In this document: positions 708-11,349 of the stretch, one piece after another | How the letters are laid out: each line of letters begins with the position of its first letter | How positions within the stretch are numbered: the first letter of the stretch is position 1 | Sequence record: PZ379075.1 | Source: a phage | Direction: 5' to 3' (one strand) | Length of the DNA stretch: 64,000 nucleotides | Notes under the pieces: generated by a model | Databases searched by the model: none | What the model was told of the DNA's origin: nothing | What the model saw: the letters and a program-made list of their open reading frames with translations, nothing else | Translations under genes and position numbers: made by a program

Positions 708-1580
708 ATGTCTAAAGTAGCGATTAACCACTTGAACAAAGCAAACGAAAGCCTTTCCTCTTTAGGCTTAACCGTTGGTAGTCCTGATGCGTGGATGGAA
801 AACGAAAGTGCACGTAAAGGATTCAAAAACTCTGTAATGCTGGCTTGCTTGATCATTAACTCTACTGCGAACGCTTTACAGTGTGAAGATGAAAGCACGT
901 TCAAAGAGAACGGTTTTACCGATATGCAGGACGCTATTAATTGCTACATTCAAGCAAATTTAGATAGCTGGAATCAGAAGGATTGGCCTGAGTCATGCCG
1001 CGATGTGAAAGCTGAATTATCCCGCTTGTCTGTCATGGTTGAAGCATGGAATAAGAAAAACAAGAAACAGCCAATCAAGCCTACCGTTGCAAGTAAGATT
1101 ATGAAGTCTGTTAATCTGGCAAGTTATGCACTGGTTGCAGCGATCGGTGTTAGTGCACTGGTCACATCTCTTTCTGATAAAGCTATCGCTAGTTCTACTC
1201 CTGCAACTGATGCCGCTAGTGTCTTCTCTAGTTCCATCAATAAGGGTTGGATGATTTGCAACGGTGCGGATAGTGATGGAAGTACTATTGTATTAAAAAT
1301 GAAGTTTAGCAACGTAACTAATGATGGCGTTCTCTTTCAGTCTAAGACACTAGACAATCAGCCTAACAATGATCTAGTTCTCAAGCGCACCGATAGTGAC
1401 TCGGATATGGTTACATTTGGCACTGTACAACGTTACGAAGACGTTAAAGCTGTAACCAATCTAGTGAGTTATGGCCCGATCAATGAGTCGATGATTGCTA
1501 CCACTGTTTACAATAACGCTAATAACGCTGTTTATACCGTTCACGTTAGTTTAGCCAACTGTATTAAGGCTAGTAAGTAA
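708..1580 (+). CDS. hypothetical early protein (290 aa) with one internal hydrophobic segment
   Basis: Long ORF after strong promoter; start ATG preceded by AAGGAA; no recognised motif. Confidence 0.6.
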   Translation: MSKVAINHLNKANESLSSLGLTVGSPDAWMENESARKGFKNSVMLACLIINSTANALQCEDESTFKENGFTDMQDAINCYIQANLDSWNQKDWPESCRDVKAELSRLSVMVEAWNKKNKKQPIKPTVASKIMKSVNLASYALVAAIGVSALVTSLSDKAIASSTPATDAASVFSSSINKGWMICNGADSDGSTIVLKMKFSNVTNDGVLFQSKTLDNQPNNDLVLKRTDSDSDMVTFGTVQRYEDVKAVTNLVSYGPINESMIATTVYNNANNAVYTVHVSLANCIKASK

Positions 1581-1605: not shown

Positions 1606-1872
1606 ATGGCTATCAAAGAAGTTAAGTTATCAAACGGCTTTTCTTGTTTTGTTGGTGGGCAATCTATCGAGTTTAATACACTTGATGGTCAGATAATCTT
1701 GCCTGTTATCACTTTTTGCAGGATGGAATATCAGCCTCTTAAAGATTGGCTAGCCTTTGCTGATTTCGAAATTACCCGCGATGATTTCAGATCAATCTAT
1801 ATTGACGGTGATTTGTCGCTGGCTAACCTGCTTAATCATGGTCTGATTGGGGATGATACCAATGGGAAATGA
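1606..1872 (+). CDS. hypothetical protein (88 aa)
   Basis: ORF with AGGAG RBS upstream; overlaps next ORF by start/stop coupling. Confidence 0.5.
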   Translation: MAIKEVKLSNGFSCFVGGQSIEFNTLDGQIILPVITFCRMEYQPLKDWLAFADFEITRDDFRSIYIDGDLSLANLLNHGLIGDDTNGK

Positions 1873-2122
1873 AACTATTGCGTTAATTGATACGCATAAT
1901 TACGGTGGCGTTACATTGTCCTTTGATGAATCAGTCGACGCTGGTTATTTGTCTTTTCTTTCTAAAGGTGAGATACAAAACATACGCTTTCCTATTGTCT
2001 GTTTAGTGCAAGATTATCTAACTGTTGGGAAGTATTTAGCCCAACGCGGGATTCTCCTGTCGCTGGAAGAAGTGGAACAGATTAGCGTAGCATTTTTTGG
2101 CGAGAATAGCAACGATGAATAG
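1847..2122 (+). CDS. hypothetical protein (91 aa)
   Basis: ORF translationally coupled to preceding gene. Confidence 0.45.
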   Translation: MGMIPMGNETIALIDTHNYGGVTLSFDESVDAGYLSFLSKGEIQNIRFPIVCLVQDYLTVGKYLAQRGILLSLEEVEQISVAFFGENSNDE

Positions 2123-2217
2123 TGATTATTTTTGGCGTTGCTTGTTTGGTGCGACCTTCCTGCTGTTCATTGCTGATATGCTGTATTCTTACATTCTCTA
2201 ACTAAAGGTTTATTATC

Positions 2218-2583
2218 ATGGGTGTTATCAAGTTTGTAGTGAAAGTATTTGTAGGCTTCTTTCTGGTTGTTCTCCTGTTAGGTGTCCTGCTGTCATCTAT
2301 GGGTAGCGTTAAGGCTGCAACATTCTCCCCTGATACGGTTGACGGTTTACAGTGTACCTATCTCGTAGAGAATTACGAAACTGGTAAACAGTCACCTAAA
2401 GTTATTATTTTGCATGTAAATGATTTTGATCATGTGCAATCAGATAACAAAGCTATTCTGCTGGTAAATGAAACTACCGGTAAACAAATCACGATAGATC
2501 ACTTGATGCGCTCATCGTTGACGCTCTTTGATGAGTCCATGAATGAAATTGAGTCCGGTAATGGTCAATGTGTAAATCCATAG
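2218..2583 (+). CDS. hypothetical membrane-anchored/secreted protein (121 aa)
   Basis: N-terminal hydrophobic stretch VGFFLVVLLLGVLLSSMGSVKA resembling signal anchor; ATG at 2218. Confidence 0.5.
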   Translation: MGVIKFVVKVFVGFFLVVLLLGVLLSSMGSVKAATFSPDTVDGLQCTYLVENYETGKQSPKVIILHVNDFDHVQSDNKAILLVNETTGKQITIDHLMRSSLTLFDESMNEIESGNGQCVNP

Positions 2584-2969
2584 GCTTAATCTTTCTCCTG
2601 TATTGTGCCGTAGTCATGCCTATGGTCATAATCTATCTGATGCTTTAAATCCTTCCTATAAGCCTCGCTATGAGGCTTTTTTCTTTTCTAAGGTGATTGT
2701 ATACCTTACTCCCTTTTAGCTCATTGTGATGCGTTATAGGCCGCTTGTTATCGCTTTACAAGCCTTTTCCTATGATGTATCACGTTCGCCCGCTCTTTTA
2801 CCTTCCTATAGTGAAAAAGTTTAAAATATTTTGTTTTACCCTATTGCATCCCTCACTGATTAATGTATACTTCATTTCATCGGGTACGATGTAAAACATA
2901 CAAGGCAAGGAAACTTGCCCCGCTCTTTAAAAATCAGGCTAGAAAGTGAAAATATTCTTAAAAAGAGTA

Positions 2970-2998
2970 TTGACACCGAAAACAGCCTGATATATAGT
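2970..2998 (+). promoter_or_regulatory. strong sigma70-like promoter (TTGACA - 17 nt - TATAGT)
   Basis: TTGACA at 2970-2975, spacer CCGAAAACAGCCTGATA, TATAGT at 2993-2998. Confidence 0.6.
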
Positions 2999-3602
2999 GA
3001 GCATAGTCAGCGATGACTTAAAAAATCCCGCTCTTTAAAAATATGATTTGTCTTACGGGTGGCGGCGACGTCATTACTATAAGGCGCTCAGTTAATCGGT
3101 AGAATTGATTCCTGATTCATACGTGACGCAGGCGGACAATAAGCAATATCAATAAGCCTTATTTGTTCGATACTTTCAAAAGATTAATGCTTGAAAGCGC
3201 ACTAGATTCCCTGAAAGACAAATCAGACTTATCATCTTGCCCTTTCGCATAGATTCACGCGAGATAAGGGAAAGGAATTAAAAGAAGATGATAAAAAGAG
3301 TTGCAAACGTGGTTAAAGTAGTCCATACTAACCACAAGTTAGCAAAACATCGCTAACTAGTTCCCAAATCAACGTATCGCGGGAAAGGTGGCACATAGTG
3401 CAGCGATTAGTTCAGGTGTAGGCGGCCTGTTAATGAATCAGTAAGCCTTCAATGTGACAGTGATTAGCAGACACTTTAAAAGGCTAAACGCTCTTTAACA
3501 ATATGAGTCATAAGTTAAGCCTCACCGCTTAATCTTCAATCAAATAAAGCTGATTGATATATCCTCCCAATAGCGGGAACGACGAAAAAGATTAAAAAGC
3601 GG

Positions 3603-3631
3603 TTGACAGCGAAAACAACATGATTCATAAT
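3603..3631 (+). promoter_or_regulatory. strong sigma70-like promoter (TTGACA - 17 nt - CATAAT), paralogue of promoter at 2970
   Basis: TTGACA at 3603-3608, spacer GCGAAAACAACATGATT nearly identical to promoter at 2970, -10 CATAAT at 3626-3631. Confidence 0.6.
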
Positions 3632-4552
3632 GAGCACTCACTAAGCAAATCATCGCTTCAGTGAAAAGCGTAACAACGGCTAACAGTTGCATAGTGTGAG
3701 AAAGCACACTGATAGATTTACCGCTCTTTAATAATTTAAACATTCTCCTATATCGGTTGAATATGCTTGATGATAATAACCATCGGAAAGCATACCAGAT
3801 AAAACGGCGTAAAACTCCCTAAATTATCAGGGTAAACAGTTTTACATTCCCTTACTGGAAACGTCACCATTGATAAACGGATTCATTGAGTACACGCAAA
3901 GACTTAAGCTAATCGCCCACGGTTAAGGGTAGCGGCGGTCATCGCTAACATGGTGCTACGGTGAAAGAAGTTAATCAGGGTAGGCAATCCCGACGAATTA
4001 ACGCTCAATTGAGAGCGGCGGTGAATGGTTAAAAAGTGGCAAATTGCTATTTAACAATAAGGTTTAGTGTGAACGTTTACGATGTGAACGGCTTGAGATT
4101 CATCTTATGATGAAAGTACATAGTCGGTTTATGTAGTAAACTTGCCGAAAGATATAAAACGTCGGAACATTAGACGGTCAATGACTCTTTCGCAATAGTA
4201 TCCCGTAGTGGGCGATGACTAGCGATTGAGAGTTGATATAAAAGGATAGGCGAGAGCGAAAGCAAAGTAAACGATATTGCCGACGGTTACAATAACGTAA
4301 CTAATTAGAGTCGGACGCACTGCCTTATTGTGATGATTGATCATCGCTATCAGGTCGGCTTCGTTTATAGCGACTAATTAAAGATACCAGATGAAACATC
4401 ACGGATAAGGGGGCGGCAAGGTTAACTCCTGATAAGACCGCCCCGCTTACCTATAACTACTTACAATGAGTGGTTATAGTTAAGTCAATAGTGACTTGAA
4501 TTGCTCATAGAGAGCGGGGCAATAGCGCCCTTACAATTGAAAGGTGAATATT

Positions 4553-5452
4553 ATGGCTAAAATCTTTACTCTGGTTAACGAATCTGGTTTTAATGCTCTG
4601 GCTAACAATATCCGTAGCAATAATGCAGCGATCAAACAAGATGTTTCTAACTTCCTGTTAGGTCATTTGCAGCACTTTCGTAGCAACGGTAAGAAGTTAG
4701 ATGTATTGCAGGCGGCGGTTGACTTCCTGTTAACCGAACGTTTCCGCGATATGGATGTTATTGCCACCGCGATCACTTTCTTAACTCCTATCAAGTTTAA
4801 CACTGATGCGTCAAATGGTCGTAAGAAGTGGATTAATCTGGAAGGTGAAGCGAAAGCTAAAGAAGATGCGAAAGAAGCGCAAATTAAAGCCAAAATGGAG
4901 CAAAACCGTGCCCGCTGGTCAAACGCTTTCGAAAACTTTGCATTAGGTCGTGCAATTGAAGTGGATAATCCTAACTTCTACAAAGGTTGCAATGACAACG
5001 TGGCGGCACACCTGCAAATTCCGGCGAAAAACAAGGAAGATTTTAATCAGGATATTTACGCTTTGGTTGAACGCTTGAATGCAATCCGTATTGAAGCCAA
5101 ATTACTGGCTGATGAGCGCAACGGCGCAACCAGCGATAACACTATCGCCCTGAGTGAAGAAGTTGGGAAGGTTAAAAAGTCCTTTGATTCACTCATCAAG
5201 AAAATCACGGCCTCGACGGTAGCGATCTCGGATGATTATCTGATGAACGCATCAAGCAAGGAATTAGAATCACTCGATTCATACGCTGATGAAATGGAAA
5301 AGACTGTTGCAGCTATGCAGGAGAAGTTAGAAAGTCTGCGCGGTCGTATCTCTTCAACGGTTGCTACCCGTACCGAACAAGCGGCGAAAGCAGAAGAGGA
5401 AGAAGTATTGCGTAAAGCGGCTGAAATTATGGCGGCACGTCAGGCGGCATAA
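4553..5452 (+). CDS. hypothetical protein with C-terminal coiled-coil character (about 300 aa)
   Basis: ORF 4544-5452; ATG at 4553 preceded by AAAGGTG; charged heptad-like C-terminus. Confidence 0.6.
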   Translation: MAKIFTLVNESGFNALANNIRSNNAAIKQDVSNFLLGHLQHFRSNGKKLDVLQAAVDFLLTERFRDMDVIATAITFLTPIKFNTDASNGRKKWINLEGEAKAKEDAKEAQIKAKMEQNRARWSNAFENFALGRAIEVDNPNFYKGCNDNVAAHLQIPAKNKEDFNQDIYALVERLNAIRIEAKLLADERNGATSDNTIALSEEVGKVKKSFDSLIKKITASTVAISDDYLMNASSKELESLDSYADEMEKTVAAMQEKLESLRGRISSTVATRTEQAAKAEEEEVLRKAAEIMAARQAA

Positions 5453-5476
5453 GTAAGACAATTTGAATAAACATAA

Positions 5477-5509
5477 GGCGCTATCTTAACGGGTAGCGCC
5501 TTTTCTTTT
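5477..5509 (+). terminator. rho-independent terminator
   Basis: GGCGCTA...TAGCGCC stem followed by TTTTCTTTT. Confidence 0.6.
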
Positions 5510-5554
5510 ATCAGTGCATTGATTCAGTGCATTAATCAAAGAATTTAATCAAAG

Positions 5555-6802: not shown

Positions 6803-6856
6803 AGCCGCCTTTGGGCGGCTTTTTGCGTTACCGCCTCCTTAATTGGAGGCTTTTTT
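6803..6856 (+). terminator. two tandem rho-independent terminators
   Basis: GCCGCC-TTTG-GGCGGC + TTTTT, then GCCTCC-TTAATT-GGAGGC + TTTTTT. Confidence 0.65.
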
Positions 6857-6882
6857 GTATCTATTATATAGGAAACCATGAA

Positions 6883-7695
6883 ATGAAAGCATTTGCATTG
6901 TCAGCTATTCTAGTTTTATCTGCCATTAGTGCCCCATCCTTTGCTCATTCTGACAAATGCTCACACTCTAAACAGTGTGAAGTCCAGCAGGGGCCGAAAG
7001 GTGATAAAGGAGAACAGGGTATTCAAGGCGAACAAGGTCCGAAAGGTGACAAGGGTGATCGCGGAGAGCAGGGCTTAAAAGGTGATACTGGATCGGCTGG
7101 CATCAATGGTAAAGATGGCATCAATGGTAAAGATGGCATTGATGGTAAAGATGGCATTGATGGTAAAGATGGCATCAATGGTAAAGATGGCATCAATGGT
7201 AAAGATGGCATTGATGGTAAAGATGGCATTGATGGTAAAGATGGCGCTCAAGGTGAAAAAGGTGATTCTGGTGCAGATGGTAAGAAAGGCGAAACTGGCC
7301 TAACTGGTGCAGCAGGTTTGAATGGCGTTGACGGATTAAATGGCAAAAATGGTAAAGATGCAGATATGTCTGCCGTTAATGCTAACGCCAAATCTATCAA
7401 AGCTCTGGAACAATCCACCAACAAACGTTTTGCTTCTTTGCAAAAACAAGTAGACCGTAACCGTGATCATGCCTCTGCTGGTATTTCTGGCGTGGCTGCA
7501 ATGGCTAACATCCCGCAAGTAAGTCAAGGATCTGCTTTCTCTGTTGGTGCTGGGGTAGGTGCTTACGATGGTGAATCTGCTCTTGCTATTGGTGTTAGTG
7601 CTCGTTTCAATGAAAACGTAGTAACTAAAGCATCAGTGGCAATGACTTCAGAGAGTGACGCTGTTCTGGGCGCTGGTGTAAGTTACGAGTGGTAA
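6883..7695 (+). CDS. secreted collagen-like repeat protein with YadA-like (trimeric autotransporter) C-terminal membrane anchor
   Basis: Signal peptide MKAFALSAILVLSAISAPSFA; about 50 Gly-X-Y triplets; C-terminal segment ending GAGVSYEW matches YadA-anchor beta-barrel signature. Confidence 0.65.
   Translation: MKAFALSAILVLSAISAPSFAHSDKCSHSKQCEVQQGPKGDKGEQGIQGEQGPKGDKGDRGEQGLKGDTGSAGINGKDGINGKDGIDGKDGIDGKDGINGKDGINGKDGIDGKDGIDGKDGAQGEKGDSGADGKKGETGLTGAAGLNGVDGLNGKNGKDADMSAVNANAKSIKALEQSTNKRFASLQKQVDRNRDHASAGISGVAAMANIPQVSQGSAFSVGAGVGAYDGESALAIGVSARFNENVVTKASVAMTSESDAVLGAGVSYEW
7100..7243 (+). repeat. Tandem 18-bp repeat GGCAT(C/T)(A/G)ATGGTAAAGAT x8 (encodes GI(N/D)GKD collagen units)
   Basis: Direct reading; causes spurious antisense ORFs 7023-7229 and 7082-7303. 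Confidence 0.85.
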
Positions 7696-11273: not shown

Positions 11274-11349
11274 GCGCTCTTAGCTCAATGGATAGAGCAG
11301 TAGCCTTCTAAGCTATTGGTTACAGGTTCGAGTCCTGTAGGGCGCACCA
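11274..11349 (+). tRNA. tRNA-Arg (anticodon TCT)
   Basis: Hand-folded cloverleaf: acceptor GCGCTCT/AGGGCGC, D-stem GCTC/GAGC, anticodon loop CTTCTAA with TCT at 11307-11309, T-arm ACAGG-TTCGAGT-CCTGT, discriminator A, encoded CCA. Confidence 0.85.

Follow-up and report, generated by a model that had tools for sequence, protein, structure and literature searches.

Results

The gap between genes 125 and 124 does not behave as coding sequence

The window, by which we mean the whole 64 kb stretch analysed here, belongs to a phiEco32-like phage and contains, between its homologues of phiEco32 genes 125 and 124, a long gap whose plus strand (2584-4543) encodes nothing of appreciable size. The largest open reading frames (ORFs) on this strand are 49, 38, 33 and 32 aa, and the ORF listing bears out the initial impression from the sequence-only reading that none reaches 60 aa; from 3017 to 4543 it contains no plus-strand ORF. 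About 2.5% of the genome is currently without annotation in these phages, and most of 98 records annotate nothing in the gap. Some GenBank records do place 'hypothetical protein' features inside it, and one could imagine small proteins encoded here, or a decaying pseudogene, with coding constraint behind the conservation. The evidence makes this extremely improbable: each plus-strand frame contains 51-59 stop codons, with a longest stop-free stretch of 54 codons, and the variable columns are distributed over the codon phases as 119/132/121, compared to 21/14/91 in the adjacent coding sequence, i.e. with no 3-nt periodicity or third-position bias. The sole ORF of at least 60 aa, a 67-aa ORF on the minus strand (3540-3743), is broken in relatives, where its start codon is lost or stops are gained, and a search for conserved coding small ORFs found none among the relatives compared. 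The 'hypothetical protein' features are probably spurious.

The signals that delimit the gap and the gene that follows it are:

2660-2688, plus strand: intrinsic terminator, AAGCCTCGCTATGAGGCTT followed by a T-run; SU10, SU7 and 4E8 carry a terminator annotation at the homologous site
2861-2869, plus strand: TAATGTATA, an exact sequence match to the promoter consensus of gp36, the phiEco32 phage sigma factor
2970-2998, plus strand: P1, predicted early sigma70 promoter TTGACA-17-TATAGT, an 11/12 match with an A/T-rich upstream tract
3603-3631, plus strand: P2, predicted early sigma70 promoter TTGACA-17-CATAAT, the twin of P1, an 11/12 match with an A/T-rich upstream tract
4553-5452, plus strand: homologue of phiEco32 gene 124 (299 aa, phrog_13018), the first gene after the RNA described below
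5475-5512, plus strand: intrinsic terminator-like site after gene 124, with a 12-bp stem and a T-rich tail; SU7 annotates a terminator there

P1 and P2 had been proposed as twin sigma70 promoters with almost the same spacer, and they indeed form a 34-nt direct repeat with 82% identity and CGAAAACA in common. Sigma70 promoters had already been predicted in the phiEco32/SU10 spacer (PMC4281155), and we infer transcription from P1 and P2 from these predictions and their sequence. Placing the starts about 7 nt past the -10 hexamer, the P1 and P2 transcripts would begin near 3005 and 3638, respectively. According to the literature, sigma70 promoters are switched off later by gp79. The gp36-type motif at 2861-2869 (consensus from PMC4281155 and PMC4331800) is a candidate middle/late promoter reading into the first of the boxA copies described below (boxA1), upstream of which it is confined to part of the lineage. 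The terminator at 2660-2688 closes the translated operon of early genes upstream (homologues of genes 128-125) and forms the 5' border of the noncoding unit, the 3' end of which is likely to be the terminator-like site at 5475-5512. No other plus-strand terminator-like site was found in the gap, the sole one (2660-2678) being upstream of the promoter/boxA units.

Four consensus boxA copies in a layout resembling rRNA operons

Exact searching for CGCTCTTTAA confirmed the four copies of this motif noticed previously (2921, 3029, 3489 and 3722), all on the plus strand within a span of 810 nt and with no others in the 64 kb. The 11-nt pattern GYTCTTTAANA, which is the functional boxA consensus of gamma-proteobacteria (PMC5725501), recovers the same four sites in the 64 kb (2922, 3030, 3490 and 3723, all on the plus strand), compared to a chance expectation of 0.61 ± 0.76 in shuffled sequences, none of which (0/100) reached four. 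Judged by its sequence, the four-copy motif is the boxA at which NusB/S10 act in E. coli rrn antitermination. The copies and the hairpins associated with them are:

2904-2919, plus strand: hairpin GGCAAG-GAAA-CTTGCC with a GNRA loop, adjoining the 5' side of boxA1 in a boxB-like position
2922-2932, plus strand: boxA1, GCTCTTTAAAA, a consensus match
3005-3018, plus strand: 5'-terminal hairpin AGTCA-GCGA-TGACT with a GNRA loop, between P1 and boxA2
3030-3040, plus strand: boxA2, GCTCTTTAAAA, at about +25 on the predicted P1 transcript
3490-3500, plus strand: boxA3, GCTCTTTAACA, a consensus match
3674-3711, plus strand: two leader hairpins (helices 1-2), the second of which (3692-3711, loop AGAAAG) is boxB-like and lies 11 nt before boxA4
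3723-3733, plus strand: boxA4, GCTCTTTAATA, at about +85 on the predicted P2 transcript

The resemblance to rrn boxA goes beyond the consensus. GCTCTTTAAAAATC at boxA1 is identical to the boxA of the K-12 rrnB 16S-23S spacer over 14/14 nt, and one copy in SU7, NC-B and Bas86 is identical to the K-12 rrnB leader boxA over 18/18 nt. With starts deduced from the promoter sequences, boxA2 and boxA4 would also have the early-in-transcript placement of rrn-type boxA. Neither boxA1, behind the gp36-type motif, nor boxA3 is served by a strong promoter of its own in the window; boxA3 has TTGACA-16-TAGAAT upstream of it in SU7, EK010, TH34 and NC-B. No GYTCTTTAANA match falls in the early operon that is transcribed from the promoter at 636 and translated, and an invariant, degenerate boxA-like sequence, GCUAUUUAACAAUA, occurs at 4044-4057, ahead of domain II of the RNA. 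The boxA identity of the motif, which is key to the mechanism discussed below, was missed by the sequence-only reading.

Downstream of both P1 and P2 comes a small hairpin with a purine loop and then a consensus boxA, and boxB-like hairpins lie 5' of boxA, as in rrn, at 2904-2919, 3005-3018 and 3692-3711. The first of these was also detected as an opposite-strand inverted repeat; the second is helix 1 of alignment A2 and has two pairs with double changes. The stem of the third covaries among relatives (AGUGUG/CACACU, AACGUG/CACGUU, GAGGUG/CACCUC and AGCGUG/CACGCU), with double changes in 3/7 pairs. On the 3' side, comparison with rrnB by eye revealed no clear boxC (UGUGUGGG-like) after the phage boxA copies; it is there that a domain-closing helix begins. 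The closing helix of domain X starts 3 nt past boxA2 and that of domain I 2 nt past boxA4, both with compensatory changes, such that the sequence after these two boxA copies forms the 5' strand of a long-range enclosing helix. K-12 rrnB has the same layout, with the 5' strand of the 16S leader-trailer helix directly 3' of boxA.

Two further helices were considered and set aside. An 8-bp helix after boxA1 (AUCAGGCU/AGCCUGAU) is compensated only in part and is confounded by overlapping promoter DNA. Pairing between the boxA4 flank (3716-3726) and the Shine-Dalgarno region of gene 124 (4539-4549) is invariant in the 20-phage alignment A1, so that covariation cannot test it, and it was dropped because it is not kept in distant relatives.

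The gap encodes a large structured RNA

The structured elements of the gap are as follows:

3044-3225, plus strand: domain X, about 180 nt, closed by UGAUUUGUCUU/AAGACAAAUCA, identified by covariation
3229-3294, plus strand: Y1, a hairpin domain of about 65 nt closed by UUAUCAUCUU/AAGAUGAUAA, of consistent structure and little variation
3300-3485, plus strand: Y2, an optional cassette predicted to be structured, present in a subset of relatives
3735-4033, plus strand: domain I of the large RNA, about 300 nt, helices 4-17; its closing helix is compensated in distant relatives
4034-4331, plus strand: a hairpin and domain II (about 280 nt), with a 10-bp closing helix ACAAUAAGGU/GCCUUAUUGU, helices 18-30
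4332-4531, plus strand: domain III (4332-4400) and five 3' hairpins (4410-4531), helices 31-39

Alignment A1 comprises 20 phages and about 850 nt from boxA4 to the next gene. Its 246 predicted pairs are 98.9% paired, compared to 35-47% when the pairs are slid along the alignment, and double (compensatory) changes occur in 81 pairs, compared to 9-12 in slid and 34.6 ± 3.5 in shuffled controls. Extending the alignment to 29 sequences by adding metagenomic relatives that are 48-64% identical left 94.5% paired and increased the pairs with double changes to 108, versus 36-53 in slid controls. It is the plus strand that folds, since G·U pairs far exceed A·C (537 vs 15). In domain X, the 57 pairs are 96.3% paired (34-42% in slid controls) and 13 show compensatory changes (1-6 when slid). 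Y2 is 96.9% paired with double changes in just 3 pairs, which hints only weakly at a structure. With compensatory changes above controls and strand-specific G·U pairing, the region has the general hallmarks of a structured noncoding RNA, and we conclude that it is a gene for a large, intricately folded plus-strand noncoding RNA under strong selection for structure. The product consists of X (about 180 nt), Y1 (about 65 nt) and a large RNA of about 800 nt made up of three domains and five 3' hairpins.

This outcome supports one part of the sequence-only reading, which had offered three possible roles for the region. Abundant early noncoding RNAs would fit the extensive strand-specific compensatory covariation; small peptides are at odds with the lack of codon periodicity and of conserved small ORFs, and a promoter/terminator decoy gains no support, as the only plus-strand terminator-like site precedes the units. 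The covariance-model search proposed at the same time yielded no family for the region in Rfam 15: at gathering thresholds the only match in the window was a tRNA-Arg at 11274, and the best E-value in a permissive scan (E ≤ 10) of 2500-4650 was 2.2, every match being far below its family's threshold.

Conservation and distribution

All of the 18 related phages that were compared keep the arrangement, their 3-5 promoter/boxA units invariably lying on the plus strand, and it is also kept in nine more distant metagenomic relatives. Relatives carry 1-5 boxA copies, none of them on the minus strand of the gap, and in every lineage the last boxA is 830-936 nt from the ATG of the next gene. The cassettes are more variable: domain X is missing in about half of the relatives and is present in the otherwise dissimilar PJNS034, and Y1 lies directly 3' of boxA2 in phages without X. 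A profile of the large RNA gave no nhmmer match in PJNS034 or TacPo2, indicating that these two share only cassette X and the boxA/promoter layout.

Among the sequences searched, the large RNA occurred only in Kuravirus-like phages of E. coli and in metagenomic relatives of these, and only in genomes or contigs that carry a gene 124 homologue. Comparison of 3000-4545 with E. coli chromosomes and plasmids (5,426 genomes) detected no similarity. A pattern scan of IMG/VR with AGATTTACCGCTCTTTAA returned mostly unrelated coding sequence and, as true Kuravirus contigs, only five. A scan of metagenomes and genomes with CCCNTAGTGGGCGATG produced 240 loci, of which only two (L052 and L070) are real; this pattern was ill-chosen, the other 238/240 being chance matches in GC-rich genomes.

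Relationship of the RNA to gene 124

One role that could be assigned to the structured RNA is that of a cis-acting 5' leader of the gene 124 mRNA, conferring stability against RNase E or controlling translation, with no role in trans and with boxA mainly making early transcription into downstream genes fast and Rho-resistant. The RNA always lies directly 5' of a gene 124 homologue, at a constrained distance and with no terminator in between; the predicted P1 transcript opens with a 5'-terminal hairpin, and the intrinsic terminator-like site after gene 124 makes the RNA and the gene look like one operon. On the other hand, the structure extends over about 800-1500 nt, comprises more than 240 conserved pairs and has many invariant loops, which far exceeds the needs of known leaders, and cassettes X and Y2 are gained and lost independently of gene 124. 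In PJNS034, X precedes a protein without significant BLASTP similarity to gp124, and the helix that would sequester the Shine-Dalgarno sequence (3716-3726/4539-4549), invariant as it is in A1, is absent from distant relatives. We regard a purely cis-acting leader as a serious possibility, although an unlikely one. Repression of translation of the suhB type, which involves a boxA within about 50 nt of the start codon (PMC5725501), can be ruled out by the 830-936 nt that separate the phage boxA from the next start codon.

Neither database matches nor the predicted fold of gp124 gave a clue to the function of the RNA. The protein has no Pfam match above the curated cut-off, and its AlphaFold model (pLDDT 70, mostly helical) has no PDB match by Foldseek. 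We considered, and rejected, the possibility that gp124 is homologous to the product of the first gene after the PJNS034 and TacPo2 gaps, since BLASTP found nothing significant and the proteins belong to different PHROGs. Among the neighbouring early proteins, no N-like match was found in Pfam, and matches in PHROGs were to families of unknown function only.

Discussion

Our analysis suggests that the gap is a noncoding transcription unit of modular build, organised like an rRNA operon of the host, an interpretation we consider likely to be correct. The phage appears to mimic the layout of these operons because its strong promoters are each followed by an exact boxA signal. If the unit works as rrn operons and CRISPR arrays protected by boxA do, boxA in the nascent transcript would recruit the host NusB-S10 complex which, together with NusA, NusG and SuhB, would turn RNA polymerase into a Rho-resistant, fast-elongating complex able to cross about 1.6 kb of untranslated RNA before entering gene 124. 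The 5' end of the transcript would be held near the RNA exit channel, which may aid the formation of the long-range helices that close the domains. BoxA is known to shield long untranslated RNAs from Rho (PMC7665894), and we infer that the phage copies bind NusB-S10 and confer Rho resistance in the same way. Other purposes should also be considered. Highly structured RNA is a poor substrate for Rho, and boxA might consequently serve elongation speed, RNA folding or read-through into early genes.

The parallels with the E. coli rrn operons (boxB-boxA-boxC; NusA/B/E/G, SuhB and S4, forming the rrnTAC) are numerous. Both have strong sigma70 promoters in tandem, preceded by A/T-rich tracts, then a hairpin and a consensus boxA early in the transcript, extra internal boxA copies before later domains, as in the rrn spacer, and a boxA immediately before the 5' strand of a long-range helix enclosing a large RNA that is structured and untranslated; the extended boxA identity with rrnB reaches 14 nt (boxA1 of the window and the spacer) and 18 nt (the copy in relatives and the leader). 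The phage unit differs in that it is carried by a virulent phage and its RNA is not rRNA, in that a clear boxC could not be discerned by eye after its boxA copies, in that its closing helices (10-14 bp) do not reach the length of the stems at which RNase III processes rRNA, and in that it ends in a protein gene; its dependence on Nus factors is proposed by analogy. CRISPR arrays protected by boxA (2020, PMC7665894) and other non-rRNA targets (Baniulyte et al., 2017; PMC5725501) similarly begin an unusually long untranslated transcript with a consensus boxA, but they are chromosomal, whereas the setting here is a phage with multiple copies, each paired with a structured domain.

Among phages, the closest precedents are the nut sites of lambdoid phages (boxA and boxB, with the N protein) and the put RNA of HK022, which are also cis-acting RNA signals carried by phages at the head of early transcripts, where they modify host RNA polymerase for processive antitermination. 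The boxA of lambda nut (CGCUCUUA) is related to the motif found here. However, the latter matches the full rrn-type consensus, of which lambda has a weaker variant, and its hairpin is upstream of boxA, in rrn order, rather than downstream as in nut. We rejected a lambda-type nut site on account of this hairpin being on the wrong side and of the neighbouring early proteins matching no annotated N-like family in Pfam or PHROGs. Unlike the lambdoid phages, moreover, the carrier is a podophage that is virulent and has a sigma factor of its own.

The combination of strong promoters and boxA could also be read as a sponge, in which transcripts bearing boxA titrate NusB, S10 and SuhB and starve host rRNA of antitermination, aiding host shut-off. 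Each genome has 4-5 consensus boxA copies behind near-consensus promoters, and the flanks of two copies are identical to those of host rrn boxA. Such a sponge would nevertheless have no need for about 1.5 kb of covarying structure or for a fixed boxA-to-helix geometry, a single infecting genome with few promoters would presumably not out-titrate the many rrn complexes, and sigma70 promoters are, according to the literature, shut off later by gp79. We consider this explanation very unlikely.

Equally improbable, in our view, is a replication origin at which the twin-promoter transcripts act as a structured primer or R-loop, as for ColE1 RNA II or the T7 primary origin, which lies behind tandem promoters. 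A long gene-free stretch with tandem strong promoters near the genome end would suit such an origin, and ColE1 RNA II is likewise a structured transcript of several hundred nucleotides. Nonetheless, the region has no iterons or DNA repeats besides boxA and the promoter pair and no local GC-skew switch, the arrangement of boxA and closing helix is not a feature of known origins, and the structure extends as far as the ribosome-binding site of gene 124. The early region of T7, another virulent coliphage, shares the tandem strong sigma70 promoters (A1/A2/A3, used by the host polymerase for early transcription) and the gene-free stretch near a genome end, but its processed leader is a few hundred nt long, contains RNase III sites and has neither rrn-type boxA repeats nor an 800-nt covarying RNA.

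We return to a unit resembling an rRNA operon and to what its RNA might do. Our best guess, and a speculative one, is that, instead of being just a spacer, it functions as a stable RNA made early in infection or as an RNA-protein particle, perhaps together with gp124. We would go further only tentatively, in proposing that the RNA of about 800 nt and its optional upstream cassettes may represent a new class of large phage RNA machine, made via a hijacked rrnTAC and acting early in trans. In trans it might, for example, form an RNA-protein particle with gp124, divert a host RNA-binding factor or a defence system as a decoy, or be catalytic. In being a multidomain covarying RNA of several hundred nt it resembles GOLLD, ROOL, OLE, raiA and HEARO, and many GOLLD and ROOL copies sit on phage genomes. 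In contrast to these, it is uniquely tied to boxA and strong early promoters, and it matches none of them in Rfam 15, even at E ≤ 10. Large structured RNAs of several hundred nt that show dozens of covarying pairs are seldom found, and new biology has come out of most of them.

The sigma70 promoters of the spacer were already predicted (PMC4281155); neither the boxA copies nor the structured RNA is described in the literature searched. It has been remarked that an antitermination strategy, as yet undefined, must exist in phiEco32-like phages (PMC8948821), and the boxA units offer an answer to this open point. The family that carries the RNA, which includes phiEco32, SU10, ES17 and BASEL phages Bas86-94, is well known and easily grown, with some members being candidates for therapy, and the RNA can therefore be deleted, tagged and imaged directly. 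If the more far-reaching reading, of a large RNA machine acting in trans, is true, this would be the first virulent phage in which N-independent antitermination of the rrn type builds a large structured RNA. The boxA units also suggest that the host Nus/SuhB machinery for rRNA antitermination and folding is exploited by a virulent phage with no recourse to an N-like protein, which would extend the biology of boxA past rRNA, suhB and CRISPR arrays.

The boxA elements of the gene 125/124 gap

Our analysis indicates that the noncoding gap between the homologues of phiEco32 genes 125 and 124 is, in this virulent phage, an rRNA-operon-like, boxA-led transcription unit encoding a large structured RNA. 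The window belongs to a phiEco32-like member of the Kuravirus group (Gordonclarkvirinae), a podophage that infects E. coli, and positions 2590-4540 are the counterpart of the ~1.9-kb phiEco32 gap, which lies a few kb in from the genome's right end. This stretch shares 99.9% identity with Shigella phage ShigP1 and 99.3% with Bas90, and is found in 98-99 phage records, almost none of which carry annotation there. The SU10 genome paper already places three sigma70 promoters in the 125/124 spacer, likewise in phiEco32 (PMC4281155), and the promoters are therefore not new; among the papers covered by a literature search, none linked phiEco32-like phages to boxA or noncoding RNA.

The twin strong, near-identical promoters of the sequence-only reading are borne out, since those at 2970-2998 (P1) and 3603-3631 score 11/12 each and lie in two copies of a 34-nt repeat that are 82% identical. 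The same holds for its four-copy motif, CGCTCTTTAA, found exactly four times in 64 kb (2921-3731, plus strand only); the motif itself went unrecognised in that reading. By its sequence it is boxA; in E. coli rRNA operons, RNA polymerase acquires NusB-S10 through this RNA element. Each of the four copies (boxA1 to boxA4, at 2922, 3030, 3490 and 3723) matches the functional 11-nt consensus of Baniulyte et al. (PMC5725501), GYTCTTTAANA; these are the only matches in the window, vs 0.61 expected, and none lies outside the gap. We fetched K-12 rrnB as a direct comparison: its leader has the boxB hairpin followed by TGCTCTTTAACAATTTATCAGACAATCTGTGTGGGCAC, and its 16S-23S spacer a hairpin followed by TGCTCTTTAAAAATCTGG. 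BoxA1 (GCTCTTTAAAAATC) is identical to the rrnB spacer boxA across 14 nt, and a copy in SU7, NC-B and Bas86 (GCTCTTTAACAATTTATC) to the leader boxA across 18 nt. Across 18 relatives from three genera there are 4-5 boxA copies per phage, on the plus strand without exception, and 3-5 units in which a strong TTGACA promoter is followed by a hairpin and boxA; in the window such a promoter precedes two of the four copies. The hairpin 5' of boxA4 has a constant AGAAAG loop on a stem that covaries through five sequence versions. The boxA elements of the gap are new examples of an established element type, and their absence from the upstream translated early operon (promoter at 636) is in keeping with a requirement for boxA on untranslated RNA.

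Two further features lie near boxA1. At 2861-2869 (plus strand), ~60 nt 5' of boxA1, lies TAATGTATA, a perfect match to the consensus promoter of gp36, the phage's sigma factor; among the relatives checked it is common only to ECBP2 and KBNP1711, and in phiEco32, SU10, Paul and EK010 its place is taken by a different cassette with a sigma70 promoter (TTGACA-16-TAATAT). Middle or late transcription of the RNA unit might thus also be possible in this lineage. The hairpin AUAUUCUU/AGAGUAU (2933-2993, plus strand) overlaps the A/T-rich tract 5' of the P1 -35 hexamer, and is compensated as ACAUUCU/AGAAUGU in 4E8 and AAUACUU/AAGUAUU in XT32 and 172-1, which suggests that read-through RNA from boxA1 may itself be under structural selection.

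A noncoding, structured RNA

The region behind the boxA copies is noncoding. It is as poor in ORFs as first described, the longest on the plus strand being 49 aa, with 51-59 stop codons per plus-strand frame. Its variable columns have no 3-nt periodicity (119/132/121 by phase, vs 21/14/91 over the initial 360 nt of gene 124), and a 67-aa minus-strand ORF, the only ORF of at least 60 aa in the gap, is disrupted in relatives. On these grounds we rejected the small peptides that had been offered beside noncoding RNA. A few GenBank records have a 'hypothetical protein' CDS inside the gap, e.g. MN05 (864-1034, minus strand); these are probably false gene calls, because a coding signal is absent.

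Other early annotations also deserve comment. Plus-strand proteins of 88 aa (1606-1872) and 121 aa (2218-2583) match PHROGs labelled 'polymerase' and 'terminase', names that recur in several GenBank records, are implausible given protein size and position, and have probably spread from mis-annotation. The gene at 6811-7695 (plus strand), also found in the distant metagenomic relative L036, has an unusual product for a phage early region: its 294 aa combine collagen triple-helix repeats with a YadA-like outer-membrane anchor domain at the C-terminus (Pfam E-values 9e-22 and 2.6e-19).

The region is also a structured RNA, so that the noncoding option of the sequence-only reading was the right one. 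The distance from boxA4 to the gene 124 ATG is 836-842 nt in close relatives, and RNAalifold folds an alignment of this segment (A1; 20 phages, mean column identity 87%) into 246 pairs. Of its cells, 98.9% are paired, vs 93.5% after shuffling and 35-47% with the 3' helix partners slid; 81 pairs are changed on both sides, vs 34.6 +/- 3.5 and 9-12, respectively. None of 500 shuffles attains any of five measures. G·U cells outnumber A·C cells by 537 to 15, and therefore it is the plus strand that folds.

Structured elements of the gap (all plus strand)
3044-3225, cassette X, closed ~180-nt domain (covariation)
3229-3294, cassette Y1, closed hairpin domain (predicted fold)
3735-4033, domain I (A1 fold)
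4034-4052, hairpin (A1 fold)
4054-4331, domain II, closing helix of 10 bp (A1 fold)
4332-4400, domain III (A1 fold)
4410-4531, five hairpins (A1 fold)

Between boxA2 and boxA3 the gap is modular, with cassettes present or absent depending on the relative. Cassette X has 57 pairs, with 96.3% paired (34-42% slid) and 13 double-change pairs (1-6 slid); for cassette Y2 a structure is tentative. The G-rich AGCGGCGG occurs twice in domain I, at conserved positions 3931-3938 and 4014-4021 (plus strand), and the related GGCGGCG in X (3063-3069). A boxA-like GCTATTTAACAATA with one mismatch (C4 to A), at 4044-4057 (plus strand), is unchanged in 29 of 29 aligned RNAs and directly precedes the 5' strand of the helix closing domain II; it may be left over from a module duplication or be a variant site for factor binding. 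Rfam 15 has no family matching the RNA of the gap, and a search of E. coli genomes found no DNA resembling it. Large, structured and without a known family, this RNA may represent a new class.

Likeness to the rrn leader and proposed mechanism

In the rrn leader the bases just past boxA (ATCAGACAATCTGTGTGGGCAC) pair with the 16S trailer (GTGCTCACACAGATTGTCTGAT), enclosing the 16S rRNA. The phage unit likewise has boxA and then the 5' strand of a domain-closing helix, which begins 3 nt past boxA2 for X and 2 nt past boxA4 for domain I, the latter helix being compensated in distant relatives; in phages without X, the Y1 closing helix lies directly 3' of boxA2. At the sequence level, the unit has sense-strand consensus boxA copies, covarying hairpins before them, large closed domains on the same strand and no translation signal.

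The element is established in rrn operons and CRISPR arrays, the basis for our inference in the phage (PMC7665894). By analogy, nascent boxA RNA would recruit NusB-S10, which with NusA, NusG and SuhB would make RNA polymerase Rho-resistant and fast, apparently independently of N. The modified polymerase would transcribe the whole ~1.6-kb untranslated stretch and continue to gene 124, 3' of which lies an intrinsic terminator (5475-5502). Tethering of boxA has been proposed to aid the closing helices of 16S rRNA, and boxA tethered to the polymerase may similarly assist long-range closing-helix formation here.

Gene 124 is present wherever the RNA was found. It is possible that the RNA is purely a cis-acting leader, but this seems too modest a task for the extent of conserved structure. 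The gene 124 product has no Pfam match above the curated cut-off, and its AlphaFold model (pLDDT 70) has no Foldseek match; these searches gave no clue to the role of the RNA. More speculatively, the boxA copies could act as a Nus-factor sponge, which would leave the RNA structure unexplained, or the region could be a replication primer or origin, for which we found no supporting DNA-level features.

Distribution in relatives

Homologues of gene 124 are confined to the phiEco32-like group; a search of ~5.8 billion proteins added metagenomic versions, some at 67-70% and others at 47-49% identity. All metagenomic contigs have a gene-free stretch 5' of gene 124 (1.4-3.4 kb where the contig is long enough) with 1-3 consensus boxA copies, on the plus strand only, the last of them 870-936 nt 5' of the ATG. 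In L036, L037, L039, L041 and L048 this region is ~3 kb or more, vs 2 kb in the window, and extra noncoding sequence therefore lies 5' of their boxA units. The A1 sequence profile finds the RNA in every contig (E 4e-113 to 9e-22). With nine metagenomic sequences added, 48-64% identical to the window (29 RNAs in total), 135 consensus pairs are retained, 94.5% paired vs 36-45% slid, and 108 pairs (495 cells) have double changes vs 36-53 pairs (72-111 cells) slid.

A separate 65-kb phage lineage, E. coli PJNS034 and Pantoea TacPo2, has comparable gene-free gaps of 1.6-1.8 kb between divergent gene clusters, with consensus promoters and boxA:

PJNS034, 2000-3821, gene-free gap
TacPo2, 1743-3366, gene-free gap

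The large RNA was found in neither phage, and PJNS034 has a copy of cassette X (75% identical). These gaps, with their boxA copies and the shared cassette, suggest that boxA-led noncoding early units form a wider class, whose RNA cassettes would be exchanged between phage families.
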